Positions 8,381 through 48,682 of a DNA stretch of 64,000 nt are shown here, one piece after another. Positions within the stretch are counted from its first letter, which is position 1. Every line of letters starts with the position of its first letter. The position numbers and the translations under genes are program-made. Under the pieces are notes generated by a model that made no database searches, was not told the origin of the DNA, and worked only from the letters and a program-made list of their open reading frames with translations. Source of the stretch: an uncultured delta proteobacterium (lineage in GTDB: Bacteria > Myxococcota_A > Polyangia > Polyangiales > Houyiibacteriaceae); NCBI GenBank assembly GCA_963699755.1, contig CAVOVB010000002.1, forward strand, positions 256,001 through 320,000, given 5' to 3'.

Positions 8381-8394
8381 TGAAACGCGTTTCA
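8381..8394. promoter_or_regulatory. KstR-type operator, perfect palindrome TGAAACGCGTTTCA (site 2)
   Basis: 28 bp upstream of the echA20 start, just downstream of a minus-strand TTGACC -35-like hexamer. Confidence 0.8.
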
Positions 8395-11343: not shown

Positions 11344-11757
11344 ATGGGCCAAGTCATCTTCGACGAGAAAGACAAGCCGCTGATGCGAATGACCTACCGG
11401 GGTTTGTGCGGTGATGCCGAGTGGCGACGGCACCTCGAGGTCATGAGCGAGTGGGCGCGGCGGGGCGAGGTCTACGCGGTTGTGATCGACGCGCGCGAGG
11501 TGGGTCGGGTGCCGGCGACGCAGCGAAAGGGCATCATCGACTGGATCGACCGCGACCGGCCGGCCCTCAAAGAGAACTGCGCAGGTGGTGCCATGATTTT
11601 CAACGACGCGGTTCAGCAGGGACTCTGGACGGCGATCTCCTGGGTTGCTCCAAGCCCGATCCCCGTGAAGATGTTTGTTGACACGCCCTCGGCGGAAGCT
11701 TGGCTTAGAGAGCAGCTGCGGGAAAAATTGGCGCCCCGAGGCGAAGGTCCCCTGTGA
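11344..11757 (+). CDS. STAS/SEC14 (SpoIIAA-like) domain protein
   Basis: AVVIDAREV..PATQRK..DW...C.G.AMIF...W..P.P.KMF....AEAWLREQL pattern. Stop overlaps the next start (GTGA). Confidence 0.6.
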   Translation: MGQVIFDEKDKPLMRMTYRGLCGDAEWRRHLEVMSEWARRGEVYAVVIDAREVGRVPATQRKGIIDWIDRDRPALKENCAGGAMIFNDAVQQGLWTAISWVAPSPIPVKMFVDTPSAEAWLREQLREKLAPRGEGPL

Positions 11758-14899: not shown

Positions 14900-15802
14900 T
14901 TGAGCAACACGCGGATCGAGATCGAAACCCCGGCTTTGTGGCGCTTGGCAGCGGCCTCCGTCGCGCTGCTCGTCCCCTTGAACTGGAGCTGGCATCTCTG
15001 GGGTCGGCAGATCCCGGGCTCGCTTGCGGTCTACGTACTGGCCGGCGGCGCCCTCTATTTCGGACTGCTTCGCTGGCTCACTGGCATCCGCTTCAAAGAG
15101 ATTTCCTACGAGGCGCGATTCGCGGTCGTCAGCTCGATGGCTCTGCTGATCCTGTTTTTGGCGTTGGGCCGCTCGAATACCTACCAACGGCTCTTCGAGC
15201 AACTCGTGCCAAAGGATGTGCGAACGCCGCTCTTCGGCTTCATGTACTTCGCGACCTGCAGCGTGCTCTTGCGCCTCGTGATTCCGTACCTCCTCGTCCG
15301 ATTCAAGCTTCGGCAGCCACCGCGGGAATATGGCTACGTCGTGCGAGGCGGAACGCGCATGCGCTGGGTCTACTTCGGGCTGTTCGTCGTGATGGTTCCA
15401 CTCGTCATCTGGGCATCGACCCTTCCCGACTTCCAGGCCAGCTACCCGCAGACCCGCGGCGTGATGAGCGGCAACGAAGTATCGATTCGGCTCTTCATCC
15501 TCTACCACGCAGCCTATTTCATGGTGTTCGTTTCGGGCGAGAGCTTGTGGCGCGGCTACATGACCTTCGGCCTCGGCCGAGACCTCGACGTCGGCGCGCT
15601 CCCGTGGATGGTCATGATGTACAGCATCGGCCACTACGGAAAACCAATCCTCGAAGTGAACGCCGCCATTGTGGCCGGCTTCGTCCTCGGCTACCTCGCC
15701 CTCCGGCACCGCTCCTTCTTCCTGGGCGCCCTCCTTCACTGGTCGATCGCCCTGAGCATGGACTTGGCAGTCCTGTGGCAACGCGGCTTGACCTGGCACT
15801 GA
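14900..15802 (+). CDS. CPBP (CAAX protease/Abi) family intramembrane metalloprotease
   Basis: Multiple TM segments. GESLWRG (ExxxR), HYGKP..E and LLHWSIA..MD motifs. Confidence 0.75.
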   Translation: MSNTRIEIETPALWRLAAASVALLVPLNWSWHLWGRQIPGSLAVYVLAGGALYFGLLRWLTGIRFKEISYEARFAVVSSMALLILFLALGRSNTYQRLFEQLVPKDVRTPLFGFMYFATCSVLLRLVIPYLLVRFKLRQPPREYGYVVRGGTRMRWVYFGLFVVMVPLVIWASTLPDFQASYPQTRGVMSGNEVSIRLFILYHAAYFMVFVSGESLWRGYMTFGLGRDLDVGALPWMVMMYSIGHYGKPILEVNAAIVAGFVLGYLALRHRSFFLGALLHWSIALSMDLAVLWQRGLTWH

Positions 15803-21699: not shown

Positions 21700-22677
21700 C
21701 TAGACGCGGCTCTTCCGGACCTGCCAGGCGTCGGAATACCTCAACATGTACCAGCGGATGAGCGGCGCAAACATCCGCACCAGGGGCCGCGTGAAGCGTG
21801 ATGCTTTCCGCATCTGGCCAATGAACTCCTCGAAGCTGGTTCGCTGGTAGGCCAAGAGCGATTGACTCTCCTTGGTGTCGAGCCAATCGCAGTAGTAGAT
21901 GCCGCTGCCATAGGCTTCGACCGGAAAACGCCCTACGCCCGTCGCGTCGAACATCGCACCATAGAGCTCACGAAACGTCAGTCGGCAGCTCTCGCCGCCG
22001 CCGATCATCAAGGTCTTGCCGACCGCCTCCGGGTTTTCGATGGCGCGCACCTGAGCAAGCGCAACGTCCTCGGGATGCACCCATTCGAGACGCGTCTCCG
22101 GGTTGATGCTGAAGAGCAAGCGAAAGACGTCCGGCGAGAGGTCGCCCGCCGCTGCTTTGACCCCTACCGACACGCCGATTCGAAAGATCACGTACGGCAG
22201 GCCCGATTCCCGAAGGAGCCGCTCGCACTCGGCCTTGTTCGAGGTATAGAAGTCGGTCCCGATCGCGGGGTCCTTGCCGGTCAGCGGTGGTCCGCCCGGC
22301 GCACGGGGCCCGCAGACCGACAGGGACGACGCGAAGACGATGACCGGGGGACGTTCCCTACGTTTCATCGCTTCCAGGAGGTTCTGGGTACCCCCCACGT
22401 TGACCGCGTACGCCAGGTCCGGATGGCTCTCCGAGACCGGCGCCAGCACGCCCGCGTTGTGGATGATCGCATCGGCCTCCAGGACTGCCGGCCCGATGTC
22501 CCCGGCCGATCGGATGTCGCCCCAGACGACTCGAATCCTCTCCGCGAACCGCCTTGCTGCCTTCTCGTTTCGGCGATTCGGCACGTCAAAGGCGGTCACC
22601 GAATATCCCTCTTTCAAGAGACGCTCGATGGCCTCTTGTCCAAGCCGACCAAACGCCCCCGTCACCAGCACGCGCAT
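21700..22677 (-). CDS. NAD-dependent epimerase/dehydratase (extended SDR; 3-beta-HSD-like)
   Basis: MRVLVTGAFGRLG, IHNAG, VNVGGT and YTSNK (YxxxK). Start at ATG 22677. Confidence 0.8.
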   Translation of the reverse strand: MRVLVTGAFGRLGQEAIERLLKEGYSVTAFDVPNRRNEKAARRFAERIRVVWGDIRSAGDIGPAVLEADAIIHNAGVLAPVSESHPDLAYAVNVGGTQNLLEAMKRRERPPVIVFASSLSVCGPRAPGGPPLTGKDPAIGTDFYTSNKAECERLLRESGLPYVIFRIGVSVGVKAAAGDLSPDVFRLLFSINPETRLEWVHPEDVALAQVRAIENPEAVGKTLMIGGGESCRLTFRELYGAMFDATGVGRFPVEAYGSGIYYCDWLDTKESQSLLAYQRTSFEEFIGQMRKASRFTRPLVRMFAPLIRWYMLRYSDAWQVRKSRV

Positions 22678-22714
22678 CCGCGCAGGCTGACCTGCAGCCG
22701 TGCGCGCTTCAAAT

Positions 22715-22728
22715 TGAAACACGTTCTT
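22715..22728. promoter_or_regulatory. KstR-type operator variant TGAAACACGTTCTT (site 4)
   Basis: One mismatch (last base) to TnnAACnnGTTnnA. Lies in the 104-bp gap between the divergent extended SDR and the LLM/F420 operon. Confidence 0.6.
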
Positions 22729-22781
22729 CTTCCTGATAGGGTCGCGCTCCCCGAAAGAGCGCGGTACCAAAGGAATTCTAG

Positions 22782-23825
22782 ATGAGGCTCGGCCTAACAC
22801 TTGGATACGCAGGTCCCCAGTTGAACACGACCGTTCAGGACCTGGTGAACATGGAAAAGATCGGCGAGGTCGAGCGCCTGGGCTACGACTCGATTTGGAC
22901 GGCGGAGTCCTGGGGCAACGACGCGGTCACGCCGCTCGCCTGGGTGGGCCCGCAGACTTCGACCATCAAGTTGGGCACGGCGATCATGCAACTGCCTGGT
23001 CGCTCGCCAGCGAACGCGGCGATGACGGCCATGACCATGGACATGCTTTCGAACGGACGCTTCATCATGGGGCTCGGCACTTCGGGTCCACAGGTCGTCG
23101 AAGGCTGGCACGGCGTCCCCTTCAACAAGTCCCTCACCTGGCTGCGCGAATACGTCACCATCGTGAAGAAGATTTTCGCGCGCGAGGCTCCGCTCGAGTT
23201 CGACGGTGTGCACTATCAAATTCCTTATCGTGGCGAAGGTTCTTCGGGCCAGGGCAAACCGCTCAGGAGCATGATCCGAAGTCGAGCTGATATTCCGGTC
23301 TTCACCGGCTCGATGGCGCCCAAGTCTCAGGCGATGTCTGCCGAGATCGCCGATGGCTGCTTGCTCACTTGCATGCACCCCGAGCGTTCGGAAGTCCTGA
23401 TGAAGAACTTCAACGAGGGCTTCGCGAAGGCTGGCAATGGCAAAGGTGTCCAGAGCTTCGACATCGCTCCAACTGTGGTGGTCATCATCGGCGACACGCA
23501 GGATGCAATGACGCCTTGCAAGATGCAGCTCGCGCTCTACATCGGTGGCATGGGCTCGAAGAAAAAGAACTTCTACAAGGACTATCTGAGCCTGGTCGGA
23601 TTCGAAGAAGCCTGCGAGAAGGTCCAAACGCTCTTCCTCGATGGCAAGCGCAATGAAGCGATTGCTGCCGTGCCCGACGAAATGGTCGATGCCCTCTATC
23701 TAATCGGCTCCAAGGACCGCATTCGCGACCGATTTCAGCGTTGGAAGGAGTCGCCGGTCGGAACGATGATGATCGGCTCGCAGGACATGGACACGCTCCG
23801 CTTCATGGCCGAGCTCAACTCGTGA
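22782..23825 (+). CDS. LLM class F420-dependent oxidoreductase, Rv3520c-like
   Basis: WTAESWGNDA, GLGTSGPQVVEGWHG, HYQIPY.G....GKPL and LYIGGMG..NFY. Confidence 0.85.
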   Translation: MRLGLTLGYAGPQLNTTVQDLVNMEKIGEVERLGYDSIWTAESWGNDAVTPLAWVGPQTSTIKLGTAIMQLPGRSPANAAMTAMTMDMLSNGRFIMGLGTSGPQVVEGWHGVPFNKSLTWLREYVTIVKKIFAREAPLEFDGVHYQIPYRGEGSSGQGKPLRSMIRSRADIPVFTGSMAPKSQAMSAEIADGCLLTCMHPERSEVLMKNFNEGFAKAGNGKGVQSFDIAPTVVVIIGDTQDAMTPCKMQLALYIGGMGSKKKNFYKDYLSLVGFEEACEKVQTLFLDGKRNEAIAAVPDEMVDALYLIGSKDRIRDRFQRWKESPVGTMMIGSQDMDTLRFMAELNS

Positions 23826-23832
23826 GGCAGCG

Positions 23833-24489
23833 ATGAAGATCGGAATCGTAGGGGGCACTGGGCGCGAGGGTCGTGGCTTGGCGGTTCGCTGGGCGAAGGC
23901 TGGGCATGACGTGTTCATTGGTTCTCGCCAGGCCGAGAAGGGAGCGGCAAAGGCGGCCGAGCTCTCGGCGGAGTTTGGCGTCAGCATTGAGGGCGCCGAC
24001 AATATCACGGCGTGTGAGCATGCTGAGCTGATCATCGTGACGGTTCCGTACGGCGCCCACGAGGCTACCTTCGATTCGATCAAGGACTCGGTCGGCGACA
24101 AAGTGATCGTCGACATCACGGTACCCCTTCAGCCGCCCAAGGTTCGCTCCGTGAACCTGCCCAAGGGGCAATCGGCAGCCCTAGAAGCACGCGCGTTGCT
24201 CAACGAGGGTGCGCGCCTGGTGGCTGCGCTCCACCACATCAGCTCGGAGCACCTCAGCGACCCAGCTCACAGCTTCGATTGTGACGTCCTGGTCTGTGGC
24301 GACGACAAGGACGCGCGCGCTGCCGTCATTTCGCTCGTCGCCGATTTAGGCCTTCGCGGCATCGATGCCGGCGTCTTGAAGAATGCGATTGCGCTCGAGT
24401 CGCTCACGCCGGTTCTCTTGTACATCAATCGCCGCTACAGGAGCGTCGGCTCCGGCATTCGCATCACGGGCATTCCGGAGACGGAATGA
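23833..24489 (+). CDS. npdG: NADPH-dependent F420 reductase (F420H2:NADP+ oxidoreductase)
   Basis: GGTGREGRGLA.RWA, IGSR, DVLVCGDD and ESLTPVL..INRRY...GIRITG. Confidence 0.9.
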   Translation: MKIGIVGGTGREGRGLAVRWAKAGHDVFIGSRQAEKGAAKAAELSAEFGVSIEGADNITACEHAELIIVTVPYGAHEATFDSIKDSVGDKVIVDITVPLQPPKVRSVNLPKGQSAALEARALLNEGARLVAALHHISSEHLSDPAHSFDCDVLVCGDDKDARAAVISLVADLGLRGIDAGVLKNAIALESLTPVLLYINRRYRSVGSGIRITGIPETE

Positions 24490-25301
24490 GCCATGACGGG
24501 CCAACTTCGGACGACCTTCGCGTCGGCTCGGAGCTTCTGGTTCGCTCGATCGCCGGCATCCCGACGGTCGAGGCCGGCGACGACCTCTACGAGCTGATCG
24601 TGTCCTGCCTAGGCCGGGCTCAGCTGGATCTGGTCGACGGAGACGTGCTCGTGGTCGCGAGCAAGATCGTCTCGCGCGCAGAGGGCTGCTTCGTCGATTT
24701 GGGAAGCATCGTCCCGAGCGACACAGCCAATCAGCTCGCGGTAGAGCTCGAGAAGGACGCACGCCTGGTAGAGCTGATTCTGCGCGAGAGCGTGGGGATT
24801 TCACGCAAGACGAGCGGCGCACTGATCGTCCGGCACCGTCTTGGCTTCATTTCCGCCAACGCCGGAATCGACGCGAGCAATGCGGCTCCGTCCAACGTAC
24901 CCCAAGACAGCGGTCCCTGGGTGCTCACTTTGCCTCATGATCCAGATGCAAGCGCAGCCTCGCTTCGCACCAAGCTCTGCGCACGCTACTCGGCGGAGGT
25001 CGCGGTGCTCGTCACCGATTCCTGGGGACGCCCGTTTCGCCGTGGCACCGTAGGCTTTGCCGTTGGTGTCGCCGGTCTGCCGGCGATCTGGGATCGCCGC
25101 GGTGCCATCGATCGGCACGGACGGGTGCTCGAGGCGACCGAGTCTGCAGTTGCCGATTCAGTCGCCGCAGCAGCGGACCTCGTCGCCGGACAAGCCAACG
25201 AGGGCCGACCGGTTACCCTGGTGCGTGGGCTTCGTTTCAAAGCGTCACGCGATTCGGCAGCGGTCTTGCTTCGCGATCCAGAGAACGATCTCTACGCATG
25301 A
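24486..25301 (+). CDS. cofE: F420-0:gamma-glutamyl ligase (single domain)
   Basis: [34 protein letters not shown] and [11 protein letters not shown]. No C-terminal nitroreductase domain. Confidence 0.92.
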
Positions 25302-26233
25302 CTCCGGGGTCAGAGAACGGCTTCTCGGTCGTTGCACTCGCAGGAGGCGTGGGTGGCGCGAGGCTCATCGACGGACTCAGCTCCGTGCTCCCTCGGGGCT
25401 CGCTCACTGCCGTGGTGAATACCGGTGATGACTTCCGGCATTGGGGGCTCCAGATCAGCCCCGACATCGATACGGTGATGTACACCCTCGCGGGCCTGTC
25501 ACCGGAGGACCGCGGCTGGGGCATCGAGGGCGATAGCTTCGAGGTTCTAGAAGAGGCCAAGCGCCGTGGCCTCGACAATTGGTTCCAGCTGGGTGACCGC
25601 GATCTGCTCACCCACCTGACCAGAACCAGTGCGCTGTCCCGCGGCGATTCCCTGACGCAGGCCACCGCCGAGCTCTGCAAGTCGCTTGGCGTCGAGAGGC
25701 CCATCCTGCCGATGAGCGACGATCCCTGTCCAACGAGCATCTTGACCAGAAGCGGCGAAGAGCTCGCATTCCAACAGTGGCTGGTCAAGGCTCGAGCAGC
25801 GCCCGCGGTACGCGAGATTCGGCACGGTGGCAGCGGCCGAGCCACACGGTCGGTCCTCAATGCGCTCAGCGCTGCGGATCTAGTCGTGATTTGTCCATCG
25901 AATCCGTACGTTTCAATCGACCCCATCCTCGGTTTGGCTGGCGTTTTCGAAGTGATTCAGCGCGCGACGACTGTCGCTGTGAGCCCGATTTTGGGGGCCA
26001 AAGCAGTGAAGGGTCCGCTCGCCTCCATGATTTGGGAGATCGACGGACGCGTCGCATCGGCCGAAGCGGTCGCCATCCACTATGAGGGTCTGCTGGATGG
26101 ATATGCACTGCACCACGGGGACGCCTTCAGCGCCAAGTATCCAATCCTCGAAACGAACATCCTGATTCAAATGAAGGAAGATCGGATACGCTTCGCCAGC
26201 GAGCTGCTCGAGTTCGCTCGGAGCCTGCCATGA
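25298..26233 (+). CDS. cofD: 2-phospho-L-lactate/PEP transferase
   Basis: LAGGVGGA, VNTGDDF, SPDIDTVMYTL, WFQLGDRD, PSNPYVSIDPIL and KGP. Confidence 0.93.
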   Translation: MTPGSENGFSVVALAGGVGGARLIDGLSSVLPRGSLTAVVNTGDDFRHWGLQISPDIDTVMYTLAGLSPEDRGWGIEGDSFEVLEEAKRRGLDNWFQLGDRDLLTHLTRTSALSRGDSLTQATAELCKSLGVERPILPMSDDPCPTSILTRSGEELAFQQWLVKARAAPAVREIRHGGSGRATRSVLNALSAADLVVICPSNPYVSIDPILGLAGVFEVIQRATTVAVSPILGAKAVKGPLASMIWEIDGRVASAEAVAIHYEGLLDGYALHHGDAFSAKYPILETNILIQMKEDRIRFASELLEFARSLP

Positions 26234-26826
26234 GCCGCTGGGCGTTGATTCCAATCAAGGGTTTCGATCGCGGGAAGTCGAGGCTCTCCGAAGTTTTGGC
26301 GCCAAGCGAGCGCGCGCAATTGGCGCGCTCGATGTTCGAACACGTCGTCCAGGTGCTTCGTGAGTCGCCGCACATCGACGCGATTGCAGCCGTGAGCGAT
26401 TCGCCCGAGGCCCGTGAGCACGCCGACGAGATGGGCGTGCTGGCACTCGCGGACGCCGATGGCAGCCGAGGCCTCGCCGACGTCGTCGATCGCGCGCTAC
26501 TGGAGCTCGCGCTGCACGGCGCAACTAGCGTGCTGATCTGCATGAGCGACCTGCCAGACTTGACCGTGCAGGACATCGCAAGCGTGGCACGCGAGCTCGA
26601 GGAGAGCGAGGTTGTGCTCGTGCCCGATCTCGCACAGCGGGGCACCAACGTCATCGCGGTGAGGCCAGCGACCGCGCTTCCGAGCTGCCTCGGACATGAT
26701 GACAGCCTCCAACGTCATCACGTTCGCGCCCGCGGTCTCGGCCTCAGCGTAAGCATCCAGCTCAGCAGCGGCATCGGTTTTGACGTCGACCGCCCGGTCG
26801 ACCTCGATCGATTGCTGGAGCGTTAG
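26230..26826 (+). CDS. cofC: 2-phospho-L-lactate/PEP guanylyltransferase
   Basis: LIPIK....KSRL, DLP, PD...GTN, S...H and DVD.P.DL. Confidence 0.9.
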   Translation: MSRWALIPIKGFDRGKSRLSEVLAPSERAQLARSMFEHVVQVLRESPHIDAIAAVSDSPEAREHADEMGVLALADADGSRGLADVVDRALLELALHGATSVLICMSDLPDLTVQDIASVARELEESEVVLVPDLAQRGTNVIAVRPATALPSCLGHDDSLQRHHVRARGLGLSVSIQLSSGIGFDVDRPVDLDRLLER

Positions 26827-27632
26827 TGCCCCGCCGAAAGGCGGTCCATGAGCAGGCCGAGGAAGCGGGTGGCGAGTGGACGCGGCAAAAGCCTAATCGT
26901 GAGAACCATCAGCTTGTTGAGGAGGCCGGGAACGACCGTCACCCGCCCTCCAAGGGCCCGCAAGCTCGTCGAGACCACCGAAGCGGGGCTTGCGAAGATC
27001 AAGCGTGCGAGCGGGCCGAATCTGCGAGGGTCGAGACCCGCAACTCGCTGGAACTCGCTGTTCGTCCCCCCCGGACAGAGCGCCTGCACGTCGACACCGT
27101 GGGGCTTGAGCTCGGCGGCGAGACCCTCCGCGAAGAGAAGATCGTAGGACTTGGTAGCGTTGTAGTTGGCCATCCCGCGTGCTCCGGAGAATCCGTTGAC
27201 CGAAGAGACGAAGATCACTGCACCTTTGCCCCGTTCGCGCATACCTTGCGCGATCTCGTGCGTGAGAAGCATCGGCGCGCGGCAATTCAAGTTGAGCATC
27301 GCCTCTTGAACACTGGGGTCCATGTCGAGGAAGGGTCCGCTCGAGCCGAAGCCCGCGCAGTTGACCAACAAACCGATCTCGATCCCGTCAAGCGCCGGCC
27401 GCAATACCTCGACGATGTCACGCGAGGCGAGGTCCGCAGGAGCTACGCGAGCTTCGACCTGGCACATGTCTTCGATGTTCGACGCGAGCGCTTCGAGACG
27501 GTTGCGACGCCGCGCCACCAGGACGACGTTGACCCCACGCTCGGCAATGCGTCTCGCAAACTCTGCACCAATTCCCGCGGAAGCGCCGGTGATGACCGCC
27601 CAGGGTCCGTAGCGCTCGGTAAACTGGCTCAT
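26823..27632 (-). CDS. SDR oxidoreductase (17-beta-HSD/ketoacyl-reductase-like)
   Basis: YGPWAVITGASAGIG, LVNCAG and YNATK. Start at ATG 27632. Confidence 0.82.
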   Translation of the reverse strand: MSQFTERYGPWAVITGASAGIGAEFARRIAERGVNVVLVARRRNRLEALASNIEDMCQVEARVAPADLASRDIVEVLRPALDGIEIGLLVNCAGFGSSGPFLDMDPSVQEAMLNLNCRAPMLLTHEIAQGMRERGKGAVIFVSSVNGFSGARGMANYNATKSYDLLFAEGLAAELKPHGVDVQALCPGGTNSEFQRVAGLDPRRFGPLARLIFASPASVVSTSLRALGGRVTVVPGLLNKLMVLTIRLLPRPLATRFLGLLMDRLSAGH

Positions 27633-27672
27633 GGCCCATGAGCCTACCACGCGGCTCGCTAGCACACAGCCA

Positions 27673-28950
27673 TCAGCTCACGACGCGCAAGCTGCGAGGC
27701 TCGTAGCGGAACCGCGAGTCTTGGGTCAGCTCTTCATAGGAGCCGAAAACCTCATCGGGATTCTGAATCGCGTCGAGCGGCTCCGTGGGGTCCTGATCGG
27801 ATGTGCCCCCGAACTCGCGAAGCACCCCGTAGCCGGTGTCGCGCTGCACGGGCACCCTCCCCGAATCTCGGATGACCCGGCGCAAGGTCGCGGGCGTCAT
27901 TAGCTGTCCGTGACGAGCACCCGCCGCGGTCGAGATGCTCTCGTTCATGAGCGTCCCACCGAGGTCATTGACGCCGCAGCTGAGCAACAACTGGGAGGTG
28001 CGAAGACCTTCCTTGACCCAAGATGCCTGGAGGTTCGGGATGTCCCAGCCGAGCATGAGGCGGGCCGTCGCGTAAAGGCGGAAGACCTCATCACCGGTCG
28101 GCCCTGGCCGAACGCCCGGTACCTCGCTGGCCGCGAAGAGCGGCGCGTCCTCGTGGACGAAAGACAGTGGGACGAACTCGGTGAACCCACCGGTCTCCCG
28201 TTGGACTCTACGTAGAAGATCCATGTGCCGCATCCGATCCTCGACCGATTCGACGTGCCCAAACATCATGGTGCAAGTCGTTCGAATGCCGAGCCGGTGG
28301 GCGGAGGTGACGACGTCCAGCCATTCCCCGGTCGTGATCCGGGTGGGTGAAATGGTTTTGCGCAGACGGTCGTCGAGAATTTCGGCCGAGGTGCCAGGAA
28401 GCGTGCCGAGACCCGCCTCCTTGAGCTCGGCCAGGTAGTCGCTGTAGGAGACCCGCTTGAGCGAAGCGCCAAACTTCACCTCTTCCGGCGAGAAAGCGTG
28501 GATGTGGATCTCAGGCGCCGCTTCCTTCACGACGCGACACAGCTCGCCATAGCTGTTGCCGGTCAAATTCGGCGAGAGACCAGCTTGTAGGCAGACTTCG
28601 GTGGCACCCATCTCCCAGGCCTGGCGGACTCGCCGCGCGACCTCTTCGTGGGGAAGGAAGTAGCCATGCTCCGAACGCACCGTGCGGGCAAATGCACAGA
28701 ACTTGCAGTTCTTGATGCAGACGTTGGTGAAGTTGATGTTTCGATTGACGACGTAGCTGACCCGCTCACCCACCTGCCGTCGGCGGAGCTCGTCGGCAAC
28801 CATGCACAGGGCCTGGAGGTCGCGCCCTCGCGCCTCGTTCAAGACCATTCCGTCTTCGACGCTGAGCTCATCACCGCCGAGGCTCTGCTCGAGGATCGTG
28901 CGAATAGGGGACGAAACCTCCTGGAGACAGGTTTCGAGAGCGGTCGTCAT
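27673..28950 (-). CDS. cofH: FO synthase subunit CofH (radical SAM)
   Basis: VNRNINFTNVCIKNCKFC, PGTSAEIL, NLQASWVK and NDLGGTLMNESIS.AAGA.HG. Confidence 0.9.
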   Translation of the reverse strand: MTTALETCLQEVSSPIRTILEQSLGGDELSVEDGMVLNEARGRDLQALCMVADELRRRQVGERVSYVVNRNINFTNVCIKNCKFCAFARTVRSEHGYFLPHEEVARRVRQAWEMGATEVCLQAGLSPNLTGNSYGELCRVVKEAAPEIHIHAFSPEEVKFGASLKRVSYSDYLAELKEAGLGTLPGTSAEILDDRLRKTISPTRITTGEWLDVVTSAHRLGIRTTCTMMFGHVESVEDRMRHMDLLRRVQRETGGFTEFVPLSFVHEDAPLFAASEVPGVRPGPTGDEVFRLYATARLMLGWDIPNLQASWVKEGLRTSQLLLSCGVNDLGGTLMNESISTAAGARHGQLMTPATLRRVIRDSGRVPVQRDTGYGVLREFGGTSDQDPTEPLDAIQNPDEVFGSYEELTQDSRFRYEPRSLRVVS

Positions 28951-30089
28951 GGCGTGGCTAGCTCCATTTGAACCTTGCGGATATGAGGGCGCAAAGATGC
29001 GTCCACGAAACCCCGCGCATCGAGGTGACCGGGATATGCTGGCAGTCTCCGTTCGAGTCGAAATCCCTCGGCTTCGCAGGCTTCGCCAAGGCGTTCGAGA
29101 TACGGCCAGGGATGTTGAGGGTTGATGTAGTCTGGGGTCACAGGCGAAATGCCACCGAAGTCGTTGATGCCTGCATGGATCAAGGCGGCCGTCGAAGCTG
29201 GATTGAGATTAGGTGGCGCCTGAACGCTGATGTCGTCGTCGAGGATCAGCCGGGTCAGGGCGATCGTGGCGGCGAGCTCGTCGGAGCTCGGCTCGCGCGA
29301 CAAACCCATCGGAGTATCGGGATGCGCGCGAAAGTTCTGGACGATCACTTCGCCGATATGACCGTGCTCGCGATGCAAGCGTCGAATCGCAACAATCGTG
29401 TCGATTCGCTCCTCGATCGTCTCACCGATTCCGATGAGAAGGCCCGAGGTGAACGGAATTTGGAGCTCGCCCGCTTCGCGAGTCATTTGAAGGCGCTTGG
29501 CCGGTCGCTTGTCGGGCGCGCGATGGTGCGGCATGCCCCTTTCGCATAGTCGCTCACTCACGTTCTCGAGCATCAAGCCGAGGCTCACGTTCACTGGCCT
29601 GAGCGCGACCATATCCTCGCGAGAAAGAATGCCGGCATTGGTGTGCGGTAGCAGCCCCGCTCGTAGCGCTTCTTCGGCCGCCCAGCGAAGATAGTCGACC
29701 GTTCGTTCGTGCCCCCAAGAACGCAGTAGGGCCCGGTATTCCCGAAAGCCGGTTTCAGGCGTGTCACCCAAGCAAAACAGCGCCTCGATGCAGCCCTGCT
29801 GTCGTGCTCGATGGAGCCAATCGTGAATCTCGCCGGGGCTCATCGTCCATTCGCCGGGATCGCCCGGCGAACGACGAAACGAGCAGTAGTCGCAGTGATT
29901 CCGGCAGAGATTGGTGATCGGAAGAAACACCTTGGGAGAGTACGTGAGCCTCTTCCCCCAGGCACGATCGCGACGAGCACCAGCAGCCTCGCAAAGGGAG
30001 GCGCCGTCGAGCTCGCTCAGTCGGTAGGCGTCTTGCTCGCTGACCGGACCGAAGCTTGCGCTGTGCAAAGTTCTCGACATCGGGGTCAT
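28947..30089 (-). CDS. cofG: FO synthase subunit CofG (radical SAM)
   Basis: TYSPKVFLPITNLCRNHCDYC, LPHTNAG, QAPPNL and DFGGISPVTPDYINP..PWP. Confidence 0.92.
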   Translation of the reverse strand: MTPMSRTLHSASFGPVSEQDAYRLSELDGASLCEAAGARRDRAWGKRLTYSPKVFLPITNLCRNHCDYCSFRRSPGDPGEWTMSPGEIHDWLHRARQQGCIEALFCLGDTPETGFREYRALLRSWGHERTVDYLRWAAEEALRAGLLPHTNAGILSREDMVALRPVNVSLGLMLENVSERLCERGMPHHRAPDKRPAKRLQMTREAGELQIPFTSGLLIGIGETIEERIDTIVAIRRLHREHGHIGEVIVQNFRAHPDTPMGLSREPSSDELAATIALTRLILDDDISVQAPPNLNPASTAALIHAGINDFGGISPVTPDYINPQHPWPYLERLGEACEAEGFRLERRLPAYPGHLDARGFVDASLRPHIRKVQMELATP

Positions 30090-30961
30090 TGCATCTTGGC
30101 GATGACGGTGTCCGCAAACCGGTTCAGGCCGTCGAGGCGTCCCTGCAAATCGCCGCCTAGCATGGGAGTCCCATACATGAGCCAGGGCACGGTGATGATA
30201 TCGGTCACGCCTGCGTCTTCGAGACGCTTGTACCCGTCGGCATCCCAGACGTCAGTAACGACCGCCTGGTATTCCATCGGCAGATGGTCACGACCGTACT
30301 CCTTGCGAAAGGTTTCGATCTGGCCGATGAGGGCGAGCAGCTTCTTCGAAGTAAGCATCGCCGAAGACCAGCCGTCTCCGTATTTGGCTGCGCGTCGAAG
30401 CCCCGGCTTGCTGTGGCCACCTATGTAAATGGGAATGGGCTTGCTCGGGGCCGGGCTCATCTGGATCTTACCGAAGTCGTAGTGCTCGCCGTGGTATTCG
30501 ACCATGCCGCCTCCCCAAATGAGGCGGAGTATTTCGAGACACTCGTCCATGCGCTTGCCGCGCGTGTCGAAGTCCGTGCCACACCACTTGAACTCCTCGG
30601 GCAGCCAGCCGAGCCCACAGCCGAAGCCAAAGCGATTATTGGAAAGCGCCGCCAGGGAAGCGACCTGTTTGGCGACCAAGACTGGATGGCGCACGGGCAG
30701 CTTCACGACGCTCGTGTAGAGGAACAGCGATTGCGTCGCAGCAGCCATGGCGGCTGCGCCCACAATCGGCTCAATCCACGGAGTCTCGCCGTCCCACATG
30801 CGACTGCCGTCTTGGGTGTACGGGTACGGCTTACTGACTTCCTCTGAGAAGAAGATCGAGTCGGGCAAGACGATGGCATGATAGCCGCGTTTCTCCGCCT
30901 CCTTCGCCACCGGGATGTAGTGCTCAGGCGGCGCCATGGCGATTGAGACGCTGAATTTCAT
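30086..30961 (-). CDS. LLM class F420-dependent oxidoreductase (Rv2161c-like)
   Basis: YPYT.DG, VKLPVRHPVLVAKQ, GLGWLPEEF, RGKRMDE and PIYIGGHS...LRRAA..GDGW. Confidence 0.85.
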   Translation of the reverse strand: MKFSVSIAMAPPEHYIPVAKEAEKRGYHAIVLPDSIFFSEEVSKPYPYTQDGSRMWDGETPWIEPIVGAAAMAAATQSLFLYTSVVKLPVRHPVLVAKQVASLAALSNNRFGFGCGLGWLPEEFKWCGTDFDTRGKRMDECLEILRLIWGGGMVEYHGEHYDFGKIQMSPAPSKPIPIYIGGHSKPGLRRAAKYGDGWSSAMLTSKKLLALIGQIETFRKEYGRDHLPMEYQAVVTDVWDADGYKRLEDAGVTDIITVPWLMYGTPMLGGDLQGRLDGLNRFADTVIAKMQ

Positions 30962-38403: not shown

Positions 38404-39795
38404 TCAGTCGCTAATGGACTTCAAGCGGCCCGAACAGCGGAGCTCCACAGCAGCACGATCGACTTTGCCCGAACGATTGACGGGAAACGAATCGAGGAGG
38501 CAAATGCGCTTGGGTCGTTTGTGCGGCGCAAGCTCCCGTTCGAGCTCTCGTCGGAGCTGGTCGACGCTGAATCGTGCTCGGTCAGTCAGGAGAGCCGCAA
38601 CCACCTCTTGACCCCAGTCGTCGTGCGGCAGCGGAAAGACACAGGCCGAAACGATTCCATCGACGGATTCGAGCCAAGCTTCGACCTCCTGAGGCGCGAC
38701 GTTTTCCCCGCCCGTCACGATGATGTCGTCGATGCGTCCCCCAACGAGCAGCTGCCCGTCGGGCAAGAAGGCGCCAAAGTCGCCGGTACGAAGCCAGGCG
38801 TCCAGCGTCCAGGGCTCGCCGCTTCGATCTTCACCCAGGTATCCATCCATCAACGTGTCGCCGCGAATCTGAATCTCGTCATCCACGATCCGAACATCGA
38901 TGCCGCGCAATGCTGAGCCTGAGCCGGGCTGGCCGCTTTGTTCAGGCGCTTGTGTCGTGACCTGAGAGCAAGCTTCGGTGCACCCGTAGGTGGCGAGGAT
39001 CGGGACCCCTCGACTTCTGGCACGCTCGCGCAAGGCAGAAGGAAGCGGCGCACCGCCAACCAAGACCGCGCGAAGCTCCGGGCTCGGCTCCCAGATGGGG
39101 TCTTCGAGCTGGAGCAAGCGGCGAAGCATGGTTGGCACGACGCTCAGGAGCGTTATGCGGTTCTCAGTCATCAGGCGGCTCAGCGCACGGGGATGGAAGG
39201 GACCGGGGCCCAACACGATGCAGCGCCGGGCAATGAGCGATCGGGTGATGATCGACAAACCGCCGACATGGGCCGGTGGCATGCACAGGAGCCAGCGGTC
39301 CTCAGGAAGCCAGCCGAGATTCGCGGCATGCGCAGCTTCCGAAGCGATGAACGCGCGACGAGATAAGCGAGCTCCGCGAGGCGCACCGCTCGAACCCGAC
39401 GTGTAGGCGATCGCCAGGGTCTCCTCGTCGGCGACCGGTGCGGGCTCCGCGAACGGCTCGGCGGGCGCATCGACCGGGACCGCGCCCTCGATCCGGTGCG
39501 CGGGCACCGACTCGGTCAACAGGAAGGCCCGTTCGCGATCGCGGAGACCTGGATGTAGTAGCACCGCCGGGCAGCCGAGCTCGAAGAGGGCGTATAGCCA
39601 AACGATCGAGTCAAAATCCAGCTCGGGCGTGAGCGCAACCCTATCCCCGGGCTTGACCCCGCGAGCCCCAAGCGATGCAACGGCTCTCTGAACACGGATC
39701 GCGACATCTGCATACGACCAAGCCCTGCCGTCTGCGATCAGGCAGTCACGGCCTGGATCTTCGCGTGCCGCAGCGAGCAGGCTCAGCTCAGTCAT
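38404..39795 (-). CDS. menE: o-succinylbenzoate-CoA ligase
   Basis: YTSGSSG, PPAHVGGL, TYGCTE..SQV and TGGENV.P. Position in the men operon. Start at ATG 39795. Confidence 0.82.
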   Translation of the reverse strand: MTELSLLAAAREDPGRDCLIADGRAWSYADVAIRVQRAVASLGARGVKPGDRVALTPELDFDSIVWLYALFELGCPAVLLHPGLRDRERAFLLTESVPAHRIEGAVPVDAPAEPFAEPAPVADEETLAIAYTSGSSGAPRGARLSRRAFIASEAAHAANLGWLPEDRWLLCMPPAHVGGLSIITRSLIARRCIVLGPGPFHPRALSRLMTENRITLLSVVPTMLRRLLQLEDPIWEPSPELRAVLVGGAPLPSALRERARSRGVPILATYGCTEACSQVTTQAPEQSGQPGSGSALRGIDVRIVDDEIQIRGDTLMDGYLGEDRSGEPWTLDAWLRTGDFGAFLPDGQLLVGGRIDDIIVTGGENVAPQEVEAWLESVDGIVSACVFPLPHDDWGQEVVAALLTDRARFSVDQLRRELERELAPHKRPKRICLLDSFPVNRSGKVDRAAVELRCSGRLKSISD

Positions 39796-40861
39796 CGGAG
39801 CCCTCTTCGAATTCAAGGCCCAAACCCGGCGCGTCATGCGGGACGATGAGCCTGTCTCGAATCGCCGCGATCCGGTGGGGCGGCCAGAGCCCAAGCGCCG
39901 GATGCTCGCCGAGGCCGGCAGCGAGCTCGGTTTGGAGTGCGAGCGCAAGCTCAGCGGTGGCGGCGCGGGCAATCGGGCCATCGAACGTGTGCGACACCAG
40001 GTATCGGGCGCCATGAGCGGCTGCGCGCTCGGCGATTTCGAACGAGGCACGCAAACCTCCCAGGACCATTGGCTTGATGACCACGGCGCTGATCCGGCCG
40101 CTCTCGAGTAGCCGCCGAGTAAGCGCCCGATCGCGAAGCGATTCATCGAGGGCGAAAGGCAGCGGCAGGCCCAACGCGGTCGGCCAGTCCTCGGGCGCAA
40201 CGGGTTCTTCGATCAGCTCCAGCTCGAGGGCTTCGAGCACGTCGGCATTCTGCCGAAGCGCTGCGACAGGGACGCGGCGGTTCGCGTCGAGACGAAGCGG
40301 GAGCATCGGATGTGCACTTCGAATCGATCGAAGGGCTTCGATCTCTGATTCGAGATCAGATCCAATTTTGAGCTTCAGGTGCGTTGCACCGTCGGCGACT
40401 AGCTCATCGGCGCGCTGCGGCCATGAGCTGGCGTCCGCGGTCATGACGAGGTCTGCGATGGAGATCGCAGATCGCTCCTCGTCGCCACCCAGCACCCGAT
40501 GCACCGGTTCGCCCCGAGTCTGACCAAGCCAAGCGAGCAGCGCCGTCTCTAGTGCGAAGCGAGAAGACGGTTGCTTCAGCGGCCGCGCGGTAAACGCATC
40601 CTCGAGTAGCCGAAACGGGCTTGCCAATGGGTCCGCAACGAGCGGCGCATCAGCGAGCTGCTGGAGCTCCTCGGCGACATCGGCGAGCACATCCGGAGAA
40701 TAGCCAGGCAGCGGGGAGGCTTCACCGAGCCCAGTGGTGCCGTCGCTGCGCATGAGCCGAATCACCGCGAACGCCCGCCTGAGGAGGCCTTCGGCTCCGC
40801 CCAGGAGCGCCTCCGACAGCTCGCCTTCGAGCAGGTCGATCTGCGCGTGAAGCTCGGTCAC
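39788..40861 (-). CDS. menC: o-succinylbenzoate synthase (enolase superfamily)
   Basis: [29 protein letters not shown] and IKP. GTG 40861 overlaps the menA stop. Confidence 0.85.
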
Positions 40862-41748
40862 GCCAGGATCCCAATCGCGAAGAGCACACCGAACAGGGAA
40901 AGAAGCTTCGCTGTGCCGGCGAGCGTTTGATTGAGAACGACCCCGCGATCGTGGGCAACCGAGCGATAGAGCCGAATCGCCCAGACCATCGTGAGAAGAG
41001 GAAGGCAGACCCAGGCGCTGCTCCAACCGAGAAGGAACATGCCGATGGGCATTGCGTATGAGAGGAGCAGCAGGAGGGCGTATTCCCGCACACCGGCTTC
41101 CCTGCCGAATCGAACGACGAGCGTCGTCTTGCCAGCCCGGCTGTCGCCTTCGAAGTCGCGCACGTTGTTCACGACCAGAATCGCGGTAGCAAGGGCGCCG
41201 ATTGGAACAGAAGCGAGCCAAGCGATCGAGGGAACATAGAGCGCCTGCACGAACGCCGTTCCACAGACCGCCACGAACCCGAAGAACGCCATCACGAAAA
41301 CATCGCCGAGGCCGTTGTAGGCGAGCGGCAACGGGCCGCCGGTATACGCAAGGCCCGCGGCCATCGATGCGAGGCCGATTGCGACCACGACCGGGCCAGC
41401 AATCCACGCGAGATAGAAGCCAGTCCCGAGCGCAAGCCCGAAGGCGACCAGGATTCCACGACGGAGCTCGGGCACGCTGAGTAGACCGGCCTGAGCCGCA
41501 CGGGTGGGGCCCAGGCGTTCTTCGGTGTCGGCGCCCTTTTGAAAGTCGAACATGTCGTTGGCGAAATTGGTCGCGACCTGAATCAGAAAGGCGCCAAGCA
41601 AGGCAGCAAGCGCAGCATCCCAGCGAAATCCACCCGCCCGCCATGCGCAGGCGGTACCCACCGCAACCGGCGCGAAGGCCGCCGTGAGCGTCGCCGGGCG
41701 CGCGGCGACAATCCAGGCGCCCATCGAGCCGGGGGCGATCTCGGTCAT
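40858..41748 (-). CDS. menA: 1,4-dihydroxy-2-naphthoate polyprenyltransferase
   Basis: [38 protein letters not shown] and VNNVRD...D...GK.TL. Confidence 0.93.
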
Positions 41749-42494
41749 CGGCGCGCCAACTCCTCGACTCGCTTCAGCGCGGCAGCAACGACGGCCGGCG
41801 CTTCGAGCAAGACGTTGTGACCCACGCCATCGACGAGCTGCACCTCGATGTGCGCGTTGTCTGCTGCAAGCGCTGTGGCGACCTTGGAGAACTTCGAATC
41901 GAGCGAGCCAGTCATGAGGACGATCGGAATTTCGAGAGACGCGAAGGCAGCAGCATAGTCGGGCATCTCCGCCAAGCCCAGGATCTCGAGGGATCGGGCC
42001 AAGCCCTCCGGATCGTGGGCGAGCCGGTTCTCACGCTGCACGGCCAAGCGTTCCGGGGGAAGCGCGCGTTGGCTCGCGAAGAGGGGCAACGCTTCCCAAG
42101 CCGCGACGAAACACGCAAGCCCTTTCTCACGAAGCAGGCTCGCACGGCGGGAATCGATTTCGCGACGCTCGTCGCGAGCGGCTTGCTCAGTGAGGCCCGG
42201 GTGAACCCCGATTAGAAGCGCGCCGTCAAACAGGTTCGGCTTGGCGGCCAGCATCCCCAGCGCAAGCCGCGCACCGAGCGAGTAGCCACAAACGAAGCGG
42301 GGTTGGGTGATGTCAGACTGAAATGAGATGAGCCGCGACACTTCGTCCTCGAACGAGTCGATGGCCCTGCTCCGCCAATCGACCCCGTGACCGGTCAAAG
42401 CCGGAATGCACGGCAAGTCGCTGAGGTCGGCGCAATGGAGCATGGGATCGTAGCTTCGCGGCGAGCCCGTGAAGCCGTGCAGGAGCGTCCACAT
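41745..42494 (-). CDS. menH: SHCHC synthase (alpha/beta hydrolase)
   Basis: [17 protein letters not shown]...PLFASQ, D.KF and GHN. Lies between menD and menA. Confidence 0.85.
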
Positions 42495-44278
42495 CAAGAC
42501 GCCTCGCGCTGCAGTGCCCGCTCGACCCGAGCGATGAGATCGCGTCCTTGATGCAGCGCGCTATGTGGCGGCACCAACGCCTCGATGACGGTGCAACCTT
42601 CTCGTCGGTATCCAAGCTCGAGGGCTTGGCGCAACCCGATCACCGTGTCGACGCTTTGGAATGCGCATCCATAGAGCGAAGCGGCAGAGTGCAGGTCGGC
42701 ACCATGAGGAGTCGTGAAATAGGGGAGCCAGGCCTCCTTGCCGTCTCCCGCGATCGGCAGCTGCTCGAAGATCCGGCCGCCGCCGTTGTTGACCACCACA
42801 ATCACCAAAGGTCCCGCCAGCTGGGACGCCAACTGAAGCCCATTGATGTCGTGTAGGAAGCTGACGTCACCAATCAGCAGTGTCGTCACGCCGTCAACCC
42901 AGGACGCGACGCCAGCGGCGCAAGATACGACGCCGTCGATTCCACTCACGCCGCGCTGAGAGCAAACAGCCAGAACCTTCTTCCCGGGCGGCACCCACAT
43001 GTCGACGTCGCGGATCGACAGGCTATTTCCAACCACCAATGAGCTAGGGTCAGGGAGTGCATCGAGCAACGTGCGGGTTGCTCCAGCCTGTGTGAGCAGA
43101 TCACCGGCCTGAGCAACGATCGCCGATGCCTCGTCCCATACGGCGGACTCCGCCCACTCAAAGCCAGCCACGAAGTCTTCGTCGCGGCGGACCGGTCTGT
43201 AGGCAGACGAGCAAAGCGCGGTAAGGAAGGAACCGATGTCGGCTTGGACGATCGCCTCGGCGCTCGAGCTGGGGTCCGCCCATTCCCAAGGATGCACGAC
43301 GATGCGTCGAATCCGATGCGCTGCGCAAAGCTGCTCCCAGCCCCTGGAGGTCGGGCTTGCACCGAGCTGCAGAACGAAGTCCGGGAGGCACATCGACCTC
43401 CCACTCTCGGTTCGCCAAATGGTGTCGAACGCACCCAGCGCACGGGACTTCGCCCAGCACCGGAACTGACTCGTGGTTTCAGCAAGGACCAAGGCACCGG
43501 AACGCTCGGAAAGCTCGTCGAGCGCGTCGACGAACATCGCACTCCGCAGGTCGGCGGGACCGCATAGAATGACCGGACGCGCCGCGGCATCGAGCGCCTC
43601 GGCAACCGAATCGACGAGCAGCGGGGAAACGTGCTCGATGAGCTTCGGGTCGAGTGGTCGCGCGCGATGGAGCTGGGTGAGCGGCTCGCCGAGGATCGCA
43701 TCGACTCGCAAGGCGAGCTCGCGGCTGGCTGGCGCTGGCTCTAGTGGTTTGCGGGCCTGTGCATTGATGTGAACCGGACCCGGCTTGACACCGAGGGCTT
43801 CGGACACCGCCTGTGCGACGATGCGCCTGGCGGCCCGCAGGCTCGCCTCCTCGTCACGCGGTTCTCCGAGATTCGCGAAGAAGCGAACTTTGTTTCCGTA
43901 CAGCCCGATCTGATCCGTCGTTTGGTTTGCGCCGCAGCCATGGAGCTCAGGAGGTCGATCGGCGGAAAGCACGACCAGCGGAACGCCTGCCTCGCTCGCC
44001 TCGATGACGGCCGGAAAGTAATTGGCCGGCGCGCTTCCGGAAGTGCACAAAAGGAGCGAAGGCCGCAAGGTGCACCGCGCCTGACCAAGGGCGAAATAGG
44101 CGGCCGAGCGTTCATCCAGCACGCTCGTGCACTCGAGCTCCTCGTTTTCGAGGGCCGCGATCACGAAGGGCGTGGAACGCGACCCTGGACTGATGATCGC
44201 GTCCACGATGCCGGCTTGAACGAAGCTCTCGATGACGAGCCTCGCCCACGCGCTTTGAAGCTCAGCGGCCGTCCCCAT
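42494..44278 (-). CDS. menD: SEPHCHC synthase (ThDP-dependent)
   Basis: SPGSRSTP, DERSAAYFALG, SADRP, GANQT, RGVSGIDG and GDVSFLHD..NNGGG.IF. Start at ATG 44278. Confidence 0.93.
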   Translation of the reverse strand: MGTAAELQSAWARLVIESFVQAGIVDAIISPGSRSTPFVIAALENEELECTSVLDERSAAYFALGQARCTLRPSLLLCTSGSAPANYFPAVIEASEAGVPLVVLSADRPPELHGCGANQTTDQIGLYGNKVRFFANLGEPRDEEASLRAARRIVAQAVSEALGVKPGPVHINAQARKPLEPAPASRELALRVDAILGEPLTQLHRARPLDPKLIEHVSPLLVDSVAEALDAAARPVILCGPADLRSAMFVDALDELSERSGALVLAETTSQFRCWAKSRALGAFDTIWRTESGRSMCLPDFVLQLGASPTSRGWEQLCAAHRIRRIVVHPWEWADPSSSAEAIVQADIGSFLTALCSSAYRPVRRDEDFVAGFEWAESAVWDEASAIVAQAGDLLTQAGATRTLLDALPDPSSLVVGNSLSIRDVDMWVPPGKKVLAVCSQRGVSGIDGVVSCAAGVASWVDGVTTLLIGDVSFLHDINGLQLASQLAGPLVIVVVNNGGGRIFEQLPIAGDGKEAWLPYFTTPHGADLHSAASLYGCAFQSVDTVIGLRQALELGYRREGCTVIEALVPPHSALHQGRDLIARVERALQREAS

Positions 44279-45617: not shown

Positions 45618-46345
45618 GATGCGGCCCCTCGTGGCTCAGCCACGTACAGATTGCAGGCGCCGAAGGTGAGCGGGTTCACTTCGAGCACGTTCAAGCCGGA
45701 AGCCCGCATCTGATCGGCGAACTCATCGGCGGGCGGAAAGGCCGCGATTGATTCTTGAAGGTACTTGTACTCGCGCGAGCCCGACAGCATCCCACCAAGT
45801 CGCGGAATCACTTTGCGAACATGGAAGCGGGCAATCGGACTGAGCCAGCCCACGCTCGGCTCGCCAAGCTCCAGCACCGCGACGCGGCCGCCGGGTTTGG
45901 TGACCCGCGCCATTTCGGCGAGCGCGGCGCTTCGATCTGGAACGTTGCGTATGCCAAACGCGATGCAGCAACCGTCGAAGGCGTCAGTCTCATAGGGAAG
46001 CGCCTGTGCGTCACCCAGCTCGAGCCGTACGCGATCGGCAACACCGCTTCGTGCCACTTTCTCGACACCCACTTCGAGCATTCGACTCGAAGGATCGCTT
46101 CCGACGACCTGCGCGTCGGGGTGACTTCGGGCGATCATGAGGGCCAGGTCGCCTGTTCCGGTTGCGAGATCGAGCACGCGAGCCCCGGCGGACAGCTTCA
46201 GCGCAGCAACGGTTTTTCGACGCCAGGACTGGTCGATGCCCATCGACATCAACCTGTTCAGGAAGTCGTAACGGCCCGCAATCTGGTCGAACATCTCCCC
46301 CGAGCCCGGATTGGGCGAGCTGGTCTCTTGGACCGCTTCGCTCAC
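45614..46345 (-). CDS. menG: Demethylmenaquinone methyltransferase (UbiE/MenG)
   Basis: MFDQIAGRYD.LN.LMS.G.D..WR, LDLATGTGD, FGIRNV and Y.YL.ESI..FP. GTG 46345 overlaps the HMG-CoA reductase stop. Confidence 0.9.
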   Translation of the reverse strand: MSEAVQETSSPNPGSGEMFDQIAGRYDFLNRLMSMGIDQSWRRKTVAALKLSAGARVLDLATGTGDLALMIARSHPDAQVVGSDPSSRMLEVGVEKVARSGVADRVRLELGDAQALPYETDAFDGCCIAFGIRNVPDRSAALAEMARVTKPGGRVAVLELGEPSVGWLSPIARFHVRKVIPRLGGMLSGSREYKYLQESIAAFPPADEFADQMRASGLNVLEVNPLTFGACNLYVAEPRGAAS

Positions 46346-47556: not shown

Positions 47557-47580
47557 CGATGACTCTTTCCTGGTTGCTCG

Positions 47581-48651: not shown

Positions 48652-48682
48652 CTCGGGCCTCCGCTGAGTCTTCGCTGGTGCA

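Follow-up and report, generated by a model that had tools for sequence, protein, structure and literature searches.

Does a bacterium that keeps its F420 genes beside a steroid catabolic cluster use this cofactor on steroids? The question is raised by a 64,000-nucleotide stretch (the window) of contig CAVOVB010000002.1 from an uncultured member of Polyangiales SG8-38 (Myxococcota), at G000:C2:256001-320000, where G-numbers denote sampled genomes and L-numbers sampled loci. The window genome, G000, is a 5.35-Mb assembly that is 100% complete with 9% contamination, and our same-genus set consists of Polyangiales SG8-38. The window contains two convergent operons, LLM1-npdG-cofE-cofD-cofC (operon 1) and LLM2-cofG-cofH-SDR (operon 2), each headed by the gene of a luciferase-like (LLM) enzyme and the second ended by a short-chain dehydrogenase (SDR) gene (Table 1). 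Of the explanations considered, the one we favour, at about even odds, is that the cell makes F420 here, charges it from NADPH and uses it for accessory reductions of sterol-derived intermediates. F420 itself is accessory to steroid degradation, and some owners of the gene cassette have no steroid genes.

The order, content and packing of the two operons are as claimed in a preliminary description of the locus. All genes other than that of the SDR clear curated NCBIfam cut-offs. Five junctions (npdG/cofE, cofE/cofD, cofD/cofC, LLM2/cofG and cofG/cofH) are 4-nt ATGA overlaps, LLM1 and npdG are spaced by 7 nt, and the radical-SAM motif CxxxCxxC is intact in both CofG and CofH. With the cof genes and npdG over their cut-offs, F420 synthesis and NADPH-dependent reduction are encoded, as had been proposed, and since each of these genes is single copy this is the genome's only F420 set. 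No protein of the window genome passes the cut-off for Fgd, which leaves NpdG as the one F420 reducer recognised here; in bacteria such Fno enzymes run mainly towards F420 reduction, according to the accessible text of PMC8498797. CofE is stand-alone, without the FbiB nitroreductase domain. A search for the FbiB C-terminal domain/FbiE (TIGR03553) gave no match in G000 at E 1e-12, a level that a distant FbiE could escape, and none over cut-off in 33 genomes. In the window and the SG8-38 relatives shown, CofC has glycine at the position of Mycetohabitans S162, next to a one-residue insertion and with the register slightly uncertain, and not the serine or threonine that marks synthesis of 3-phosphoglycerate-type F420 (3PG-F420); serine at this residue is diagnostic for 3-phosphoglycerate-using enzymes in the accessible part of PMC8764529. 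To call the set a self-contained module was an overstatement: it holds the only cof and npdG copies of a genome with nine LLM matches, seven of them besides LLM1 and LLM2 and two of these seven over the cut-off of the F420-type family TIGR03617, and with four matches to FDOR-A (Ddn-type F420H2 reductase) elsewhere, and no dehydro-F420 reductase was found in this genome.

Table 1. Features of the F420 operons and their left flank, in window coordinates.
Feature	Position	Strand	Family score or remark
LLM1	22782-23825	+	TIGR03559 (Rv3520c family), 368 bits, cut-off 335
npdG/Fno, NADPH:F420 oxidoreductase	23833-24489	+	TIGR01915, 203, cut-off 150
cofE, F420-0:glutamate ligase	24486-25301	+	TIGR01916, 244, cut-off 181
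cofD, phospholactyl/enolpyruvyl transferase	25298-26233	+	TIGR01819, 263, cut-off 257 (narrow)
cofC, guanylyltransferase	26230-26826	+	TIGR03552, 127, cut-off 105
SDR, ends operon 2	26823-27632	-	likely ATG 27632, 40 bp past cofH
cofH, radical SAM FO synthase subunit	27673-28950	-	TIGR03551, 467, cut-off 374
cofG, radical SAM FO synthase subunit	28947-30089	-	TIGR03550, 415, cut-off 213
LLM2, luciferase-like, heads operon 2	30086-30961	-	TIGR03619, 204, cut-off 167
KstR-type operator TGAAACACGTTCTT	22715-22728		one mismatch; overlaps -35 element and spacer
Predicted operon-1 promoter	22709-22742	+	-35-like TTGAAA (22714-22719), 17-nt spacer, TG-extended -10-like TAGGGT (22737-22742); from conservation
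NAD-dependent epimerase/3beta-hydroxysteroid dehydrogenase (3beta-HSD)-like gene, divergent from LLM1	21700-22677	-	Pfam Epimerase and 3Beta_HSD matches
Steroid C/D-ring and side-chain cluster	1210-21697		perfect operators at 606, 8381, 15864

The steroid locus to which the F420 set was said to be attached is present to its left as a C/D-ring cluster. Models for a fadA6-family thiolase, echA20, FadD3 and an IpdF-family SDR are over their cut-offs there, and the cluster further contains acyl-CoA dehydrogenases, ipdC/B/A-like genes, a CasG-like ligase, a thiolase, a CurA-like reductase and SDRs. With its KshA_C+Rieske proteins and its hsa-, kstD- and ipd-like genes the window genome classes as an aerobic 9,10-seco degrader, several of the pathway homologues scoring below the actinobacterial equivalog cut-offs.

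These genes are tied together by a palindrome, TRRAACRYGTTYYA, which the genome contains in 22 exact copies where 0.35 would be expected. Annotation of 20 regions surrounding palindrome sites or three LLMs, with 188 predicted genes in all, showed that the sites head kshA-like, hsaC-hsaD, hsaA/hsaB, hsaE-G-F, kstD-like and cytochrome P450 genes, as well as acyl-CoA dehydrogenase, SCP2/OB-fold/ltp4/ltp3/fadD and ipd genes. The KstR consensus we take to be TnnAACnnGTTnnA. A matrix of 22 genomic sites, with the site at 22715 left out (maximum score 26.4), also scores sites within the cholesterol (steroid) clusters of Nocardia and Tsukamurella. KstR binds a 14-bp palindrome, according to the accessible text of PMC3068626, which also gives the KstR2 motif; the window has no exact KstR2-type site, and its five one-mismatch sites all lie inside open reading frames (ORFs). 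Some 6 kb to the left of the window, the gene that ends an ltp4-ltp3-fadD-kshA run (in the region G000:C2:249891-250463) encodes a KstR candidate, which is the best of 18 model matches (124 bits, cut-off 280) and has KstR as its closest solved relative (E 1.6e-22).

That the first operon carries a steroid-type operator was likewise borne out: a one-mismatch copy of the palindrome precedes LLM1, with a weak score of 16.7, which was reached twice when the 104-bp intergenic region was shuffled 20,000 times. The element TCAAATTGA, containing the -35-like hexamer, is invariant in 23 of 23 aligned sequences, and most CCTGnTA positions of the promoter are kept in 21 of 23. The LLM1 promoter was read by eye; it was not among the predictions of a consensus promoter scan and so rests on conservation. 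The operator reaches a score of at least 13 in 9 of 22 relatives and at least 20 in four; as a control, the curA-like gene retains its operator in 13/13 relatives. LLM2 has its own conserved -10-like TATGCT, and none of the seven other LLM genes of the genome has an operator. One matching RNA run (share 0.06, on relatives' contigs only and mostly less than 90% alike) has no bearing on expression or induction. Away from the window, a near-perfect operator (26.0) heads a kstD-like gene whose end is overlapped by an FDOR-A gene (G000:C2:505079-507327; L078:5080-7328). Of 16 genus genomes, 10 have these two genes side by side, and this FDOR-A (G000:C2:506854-507327) is a further putative F420 user in the steroid regulon.

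Linkage in relatives, a check set beforehand, was found in the genus. Both cofD and ipdA are present in each of the 24 same-genus genomes; in 11 the two genes share a contig, at a distance of 17-22 kb, and in the other 13 they lie on separate contigs. In 25 of 31 loci an LLM1 relative is 85-96% identical, and the epimerase/3beta-HSD-like gene stands beside LLM1 in every SG8-38 locus reaching that far. An apparent break of synteny at L033 was rejected, as this is an N-joined scaffold.

The tie to the steroid regulon recurs in other lineages, with differing gene orders. In the sister genus (G183) an operator scoring 21.7 precedes P450-LLM2-cofG-cofH (L167:248-3655, G183:C360), and in G042 two perfect operators lie ahead of P450-cofG-cofH on the ipdA contig. 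In G041 and G045/G204 a perfect operator precedes LLM1-npdG-cofE-cofD, and a P450 gene precedes cofG-cofH; G044/G101 have a weak site in front of LLM1. In G126 the cassette has hsa genes on one side and kstD-like genes on the other, and in G217 the cof genes stand among fadE, ipdF, echA20 and fadD3, with operators. The relative of this P450 in the window genome is 43-63% identical and closest to CYP125 and CYP142 structures; the 63%-identical protein, at C2:787134, has its own operator, and a 79% paralogue lies at C1:1237148. Two loci titled Enterobacterales (L054, L060) have a G + C content of 71-72%, and the L060 genome shares ipdA coordinates with G204, of the window's phylum, so that these titles look wrong.

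Across a phylum sample of 251 Myxococcota genomes, cofD was found in 78, ipdA in 74 (one weak) and TIGR03559 in 74. Both cofD and ipdA occur in 67, cofD only in 11, ipdA only in seven and neither in 166; once family f1 and the LLM-rich families (47 genomes, assigned from listed rows) are set aside, these counts become nine, seven, seven and 163. As kin are not independent, we treat the co-occurrence as a lead only. Every TIGR03559-bearing genome has cofD (74/74), and 4 of the 78 cofD genomes are without a TIGR03559 member; in several families cofD is present in every sampled member, with up to six TIGR03559 paralogues. Five cofD-only genomes were examined, of which two have kshA and hsaC and three neither. 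The lineage had been described as not known for F420. This fits the searchable text of PMC8498797, a 2021 F420 review, which does not name Myxococcota or Deltaproteobacteria and mentions steroid, sterol and cholesterol nowhere; it does not fit the genomes, where cofD is common.

The two LLM enzymes are the candidate users of the cofactor. LLM1 is the sole TIGR03559 member over cut-off in the window genome, and its closest solved sequences are Mer enzymes. Searched against a plasmid collection, LLM2 is matched best by a gene of Nocardia farcinica that immediately follows ltp4-ltp3 (53% identity), and the two group in a tree at moderate support (90/85). At this locus (L115:3787-9038) two F420-type LLM genes flank an OB-fold/ltp4/ltp3 operon, the LLM2 relative directly after ltp3 and a TIGR03559 gene on the opposite side; the Nocardia TIGR03619 gene is not in the mycobacterial gene list consulted for comparison. 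Both window proteins are predicted to form a TIM barrel (predicted local distance difference test scores of 91.3 for LLM1 and 94.5 for LLM2), similar to the characterised luciferase-like hydride transferases (LLHTs) Mer, Adf, Fgd, fHMAD, fPKR, Apd6 and LxmJ. LLM2 shares a YGDG stretch with fHMAD, and its identity to characterised LLHTs in the fold search is at most 20%. A histidine after the second strand, found in Mer and many LLM2 paralogues as DH, is not present in either enzyme, LLM1 having ESWG and LLM2 DS at this site. This residue is presumably the catalytic base in Fgd/Adf, and its loss is a weak pointer towards reduction rather than alcohol oxidation in LLM1 and LLM2.

The genes, their copy number, operators and context were observed directly; cofactor production, repression, direction and substrate we infer as follows. 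By known pathway chemistry, CofG and CofH would make FO, CofC, CofD and CofE would add the side chain and glutamates, and NpdG would reduce F420 with NADPH. The context suggests that sterol CoA esters could release the KstR-like repressor and thereby raise LLM1, NpdG and CofE/D/C, LLM2-cofG-cofH being driven by its own promoter, and that LLM1, LLM2 and the Ddn-type reductase may transfer hydride onto an activated C=C or C=O. Such a step would most likely belong to side-chain processing in sterols that differ from plain cholesterol, given that in Nocardia the OB-fold/ltp4/ltp3 genes are flanked by relatives of LLM1 and LLM2 and that four other genomes have cofGH behind a CYP125/142-like P450; ltp3 and ltp4 cleave side chains branched at C24, according to the accessible text of PMC6678751. 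The F420 step would broaden the substrate range or clear dead-end products, the core 9,10-seco route being independent of it. We also offer, with more hesitation and as a possibility somewhat short of even, that sterol-degrading myxobacteria have repeatedly put F420 synthesis under the sterol repressor because F420H2-dependent luciferase-like enzymes catalyse a real reaction of sterol catabolism, one as yet undescribed and shared with the actinobacterial LLMs that flank ltp4-ltp3.

Several observations weigh against the use of this F420 on steroids. As a required step it fails: seven of 74 ipdA-positive genomes (92-100% complete) show neither cofD nor TIGR03559, and with ltp4 in all seven and the CYP125/142-like P450 in five, the core steroid pathway does not need F420. 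Nor does F420 single out the degraders that have ltp3/ltp4 or a C26 P450; this idea was rejected, since F420-negative degraders carry these genes too. The operon-1 operator is weak here and scores below 13 in 13 of 22 relatives though the promoter bases persist; it sits between LLM1 and the divergent epimerase/3beta-HSD-like gene, which it may serve instead, and operon 2 has no operator in any of 17 genus genomes (the window and 16 relatives). Co-regulation of the whole F420 set, as had been envisaged, is thus not upheld: sterol control is plausible for operon 1 in this genome and labile across the genus, and operon 2 is without it. The genus synteny is not special either, since lipE and metH stay attached equally firmly, in 16 of 16 long enough loci. 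LLM1 belongs to a clade of 17 rows (99/95) that excludes the actinobacterial genes occupying the Rv3520c position, its identity to those of Nocardia and Tsukamurella being 41% and 45%; the tree had 47 rows, four of them actinobacterial and Rv3520c itself not among them, 19 near-identical SG8-38 rows (L033-L053) having been thinned out ahead of the trees. The label Rv3520c-like therefore stands for family membership, by the TIGR03559 cut-off, and not for orthology, which this tree does not support. Finally, a fold search with LLM2 ranks monooxygenases dependent on flavin mononucleotide (FMN) and F420 enzymes alike, and two of six distant LLM1 loci are without a steroid tie.

Some of these points would suit a general-purpose F420 cassette that lies beside the steroid cluster and serves all F420 enzymes of the cell, for instance in quinone reduction or detoxification; the LLM substrates would then be non-steroid, LLM2 possibly FMN-using, and the operator vestigial or that of the epimerase gene. 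The single copy does have the seven other LLMs and the FDOR-A proteins to serve, and these LLM genes are without operators, including the two in TIGR03617. G139 and G266 carry LLM1 and the cassette with no match to kshA, hsaC, ltp4 or ipdA and no operator, a steroid cluster or operator tie appears in only two of 20 chosen cofD regions outside SG8-38 (G126 and G217), and Sphingobium plasmids carry LLM2 relatives at 41-43% identity. We nonetheless consider this explanation unlikely, both as to the role of the cassette and as to the substrates of the LLMs: cof operons of varying gene order are preceded by operators in G183, G041, G042 and G045, the set is embedded in the steroid clusters of G126 and G217, Nocardia has both LLM types next to ltp4-ltp3, and a kstD-like gene shares one operon with FDOR-A.

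Two further explanations keep LLM1 or LLM2 tied to F420 in another way. In one, which we hold to be improbable, an LLM is an F420-dependent dehydrogenase for a C26 alcohol or aldehyde made by the P450, or for a ring hydroxyl, and NpdG runs in reverse to return NADPH. The P450 gene that leads cofG-cofH in G183, G041, G042 and G204, directly before LLM2 in G183, would fit such an oxidation, as would the LLHT alcohol dehydrogenases known to act on lipids, Adf and fHMAD, in the accessible text of PMC8498797. The same text gives F420 reduction as the dominant bacterial direction of Fno, however; G041, G042 and G204 have the P450-cofGH unit and no close LLM2, and LLM1 and LLM2 differ from the DH of Mer and many LLM2 paralogues as described above. 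In the other, more improbable by a shade, LLM1 belongs to cofactor synthesis: taking the place of the nitroreductase FbiB/FbiE, it uses F420H2 supplied by NpdG to reduce the enolpyruvyl group of dehydro-F420. Such a role is suggested by the lack of an FbiB C-terminal match in G000 and in the 33 genomes at the thresholds given, by a CofC of 2-phospholactate/phosphoenolpyruvate type and by the LLM1 clade, nearly all of whose 17 rows adjoin npdG or cof genes across the phylum, with or without steroid genes; the LLHT LxmJ reduces a similar dehydroalanine group, according to passages of PMC8498797. It is opposed by the four cofD genomes without a TIGR03559 member and by the occurrence of the family in actinobacteria that have FbiB, and a reductase of another, unrecognised kind or a supply of 2-phospholactate could also close the gap.

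Among the closest known systems is the mycobacterial cholesterol cluster, whose Rv3520c the accessible texts of PMC12855090 and PMC6429209 give as an F420-dependent oxidoreductase in the degradation of cholesterol. With this KstR regulon the locus shares the Rv3520c family, LLM1 passing the TIGR03559 cut-off, and the 14-bp palindrome, for which the steroid clusters of Nocardia and Tsukamurella also contain scoring sites. In contrast to the mycobacterial cholesterol cluster, the genes for F420 itself lie next to the steroid genes here; the recharging enzyme is Fno and not Fgd, CofG/CofH and CofE exist as stand-alone proteins, and the ipd genes, too, have a KstR-type rather than a KstR2-type site at their head. 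This last site, at 8381-8394, heads echA20-ipdA-ipdB-ipdC; KstR-type operators at ipd loci also occur in five distant genomes (L061-L065), and one repressor may control the ring-A/B as well as the ring-C/D genes, unlike in mycobacteria. F420 biosynthesis genes within the steroid gene cluster of a Gram-negative bacterium are also found in Sterolibacterium denitrificans, where cofC-cofD-cofE stand next to ACS3 in a side-chain cluster (PMC6678751); that organism differs in its oxygen-independent 2,3-seco pathway, and in the accessible text its F420 genes are a gene annotation given no role, with no LLM, Fno or operator listed. Similar to Paracoccus, Oligotropha, Mycetohabitans and Ca. Entotheonella, the window has cofC, cofD, a stand-alone cofE and Fno as F420 reducer (PMC8498797 and PMC8764529, in their accessible parts), and unlike the 3PG-F420 makers its CofC is without their serine. 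No LLHT enzyme in the passages of PMC8498797 acts on steroids. Our literature search, whose coverage left out most subscription papers, found no paper on F420 in steroid-degrading Myxococcota. What the locus joins are known cofactor genes and a known type of regulon, in a phylum in which we found neither described.

In mycobacteria an F420 enzyme that converts steroids has been assumed from gene position. Here synthesis, recharge and candidate users lie within 8 kb and could be expressed together, which makes the question of F420 and steroids testable on the genes of a harmless organism. F420 genes in about three in ten of the sampled Myxococcota genomes, together with a KstR-type sterol regulon in the phylum, bear on sterol turnover in sediments and soils and on steroid biocatalysis. 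If the repeated placement of F420 synthesis under the sterol repressor, which we proposed tentatively, is real, the compact operons would offer a direct route to a first F420-dependent steroid enzyme and to the function of the Rv3520c family.

Among the remaining features, the SDR that ends operon 2 has no named family over cut-off among its best 25 matches; it falls below cut-off with mycolate-reductase and 7beta-hydroxysteroid dehydrogenase models, and the latter name was rejected (110 bits, cut-off 300). It is missing from 5 of 18 related loci that span cofC to cofH, and so is a dispensable and not a constant member of operon 2; L044 has neither SDR nor cofH within 2.6 kb past cofC. An Rfam scan of the window gave no match. 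Two ORFs inside the steroid cluster (11344-11757 and 14900-15802) have no Pfam or NCBIfam match at the thresholds used. To the right, an esterase gene and metH adjoin the F420 operons. Further on, menaquinone (men) genes, an HMG-CoA reductase gene and a polyprenyl synthase gene form one run (38404-48984), and a strict operator match (51952-51965) lies inside a called sulfotransferase ORF (51202-52365). Elsewhere in the assembly, two near-duplicate blocks (G000:C1:1716000-1729000 and C7:273000-286000), with an operator on each, hold genes for aldehyde dehydrogenase, esterase, AdoHcyase and ferredoxin reductase; they may belong to the contaminating fraction.

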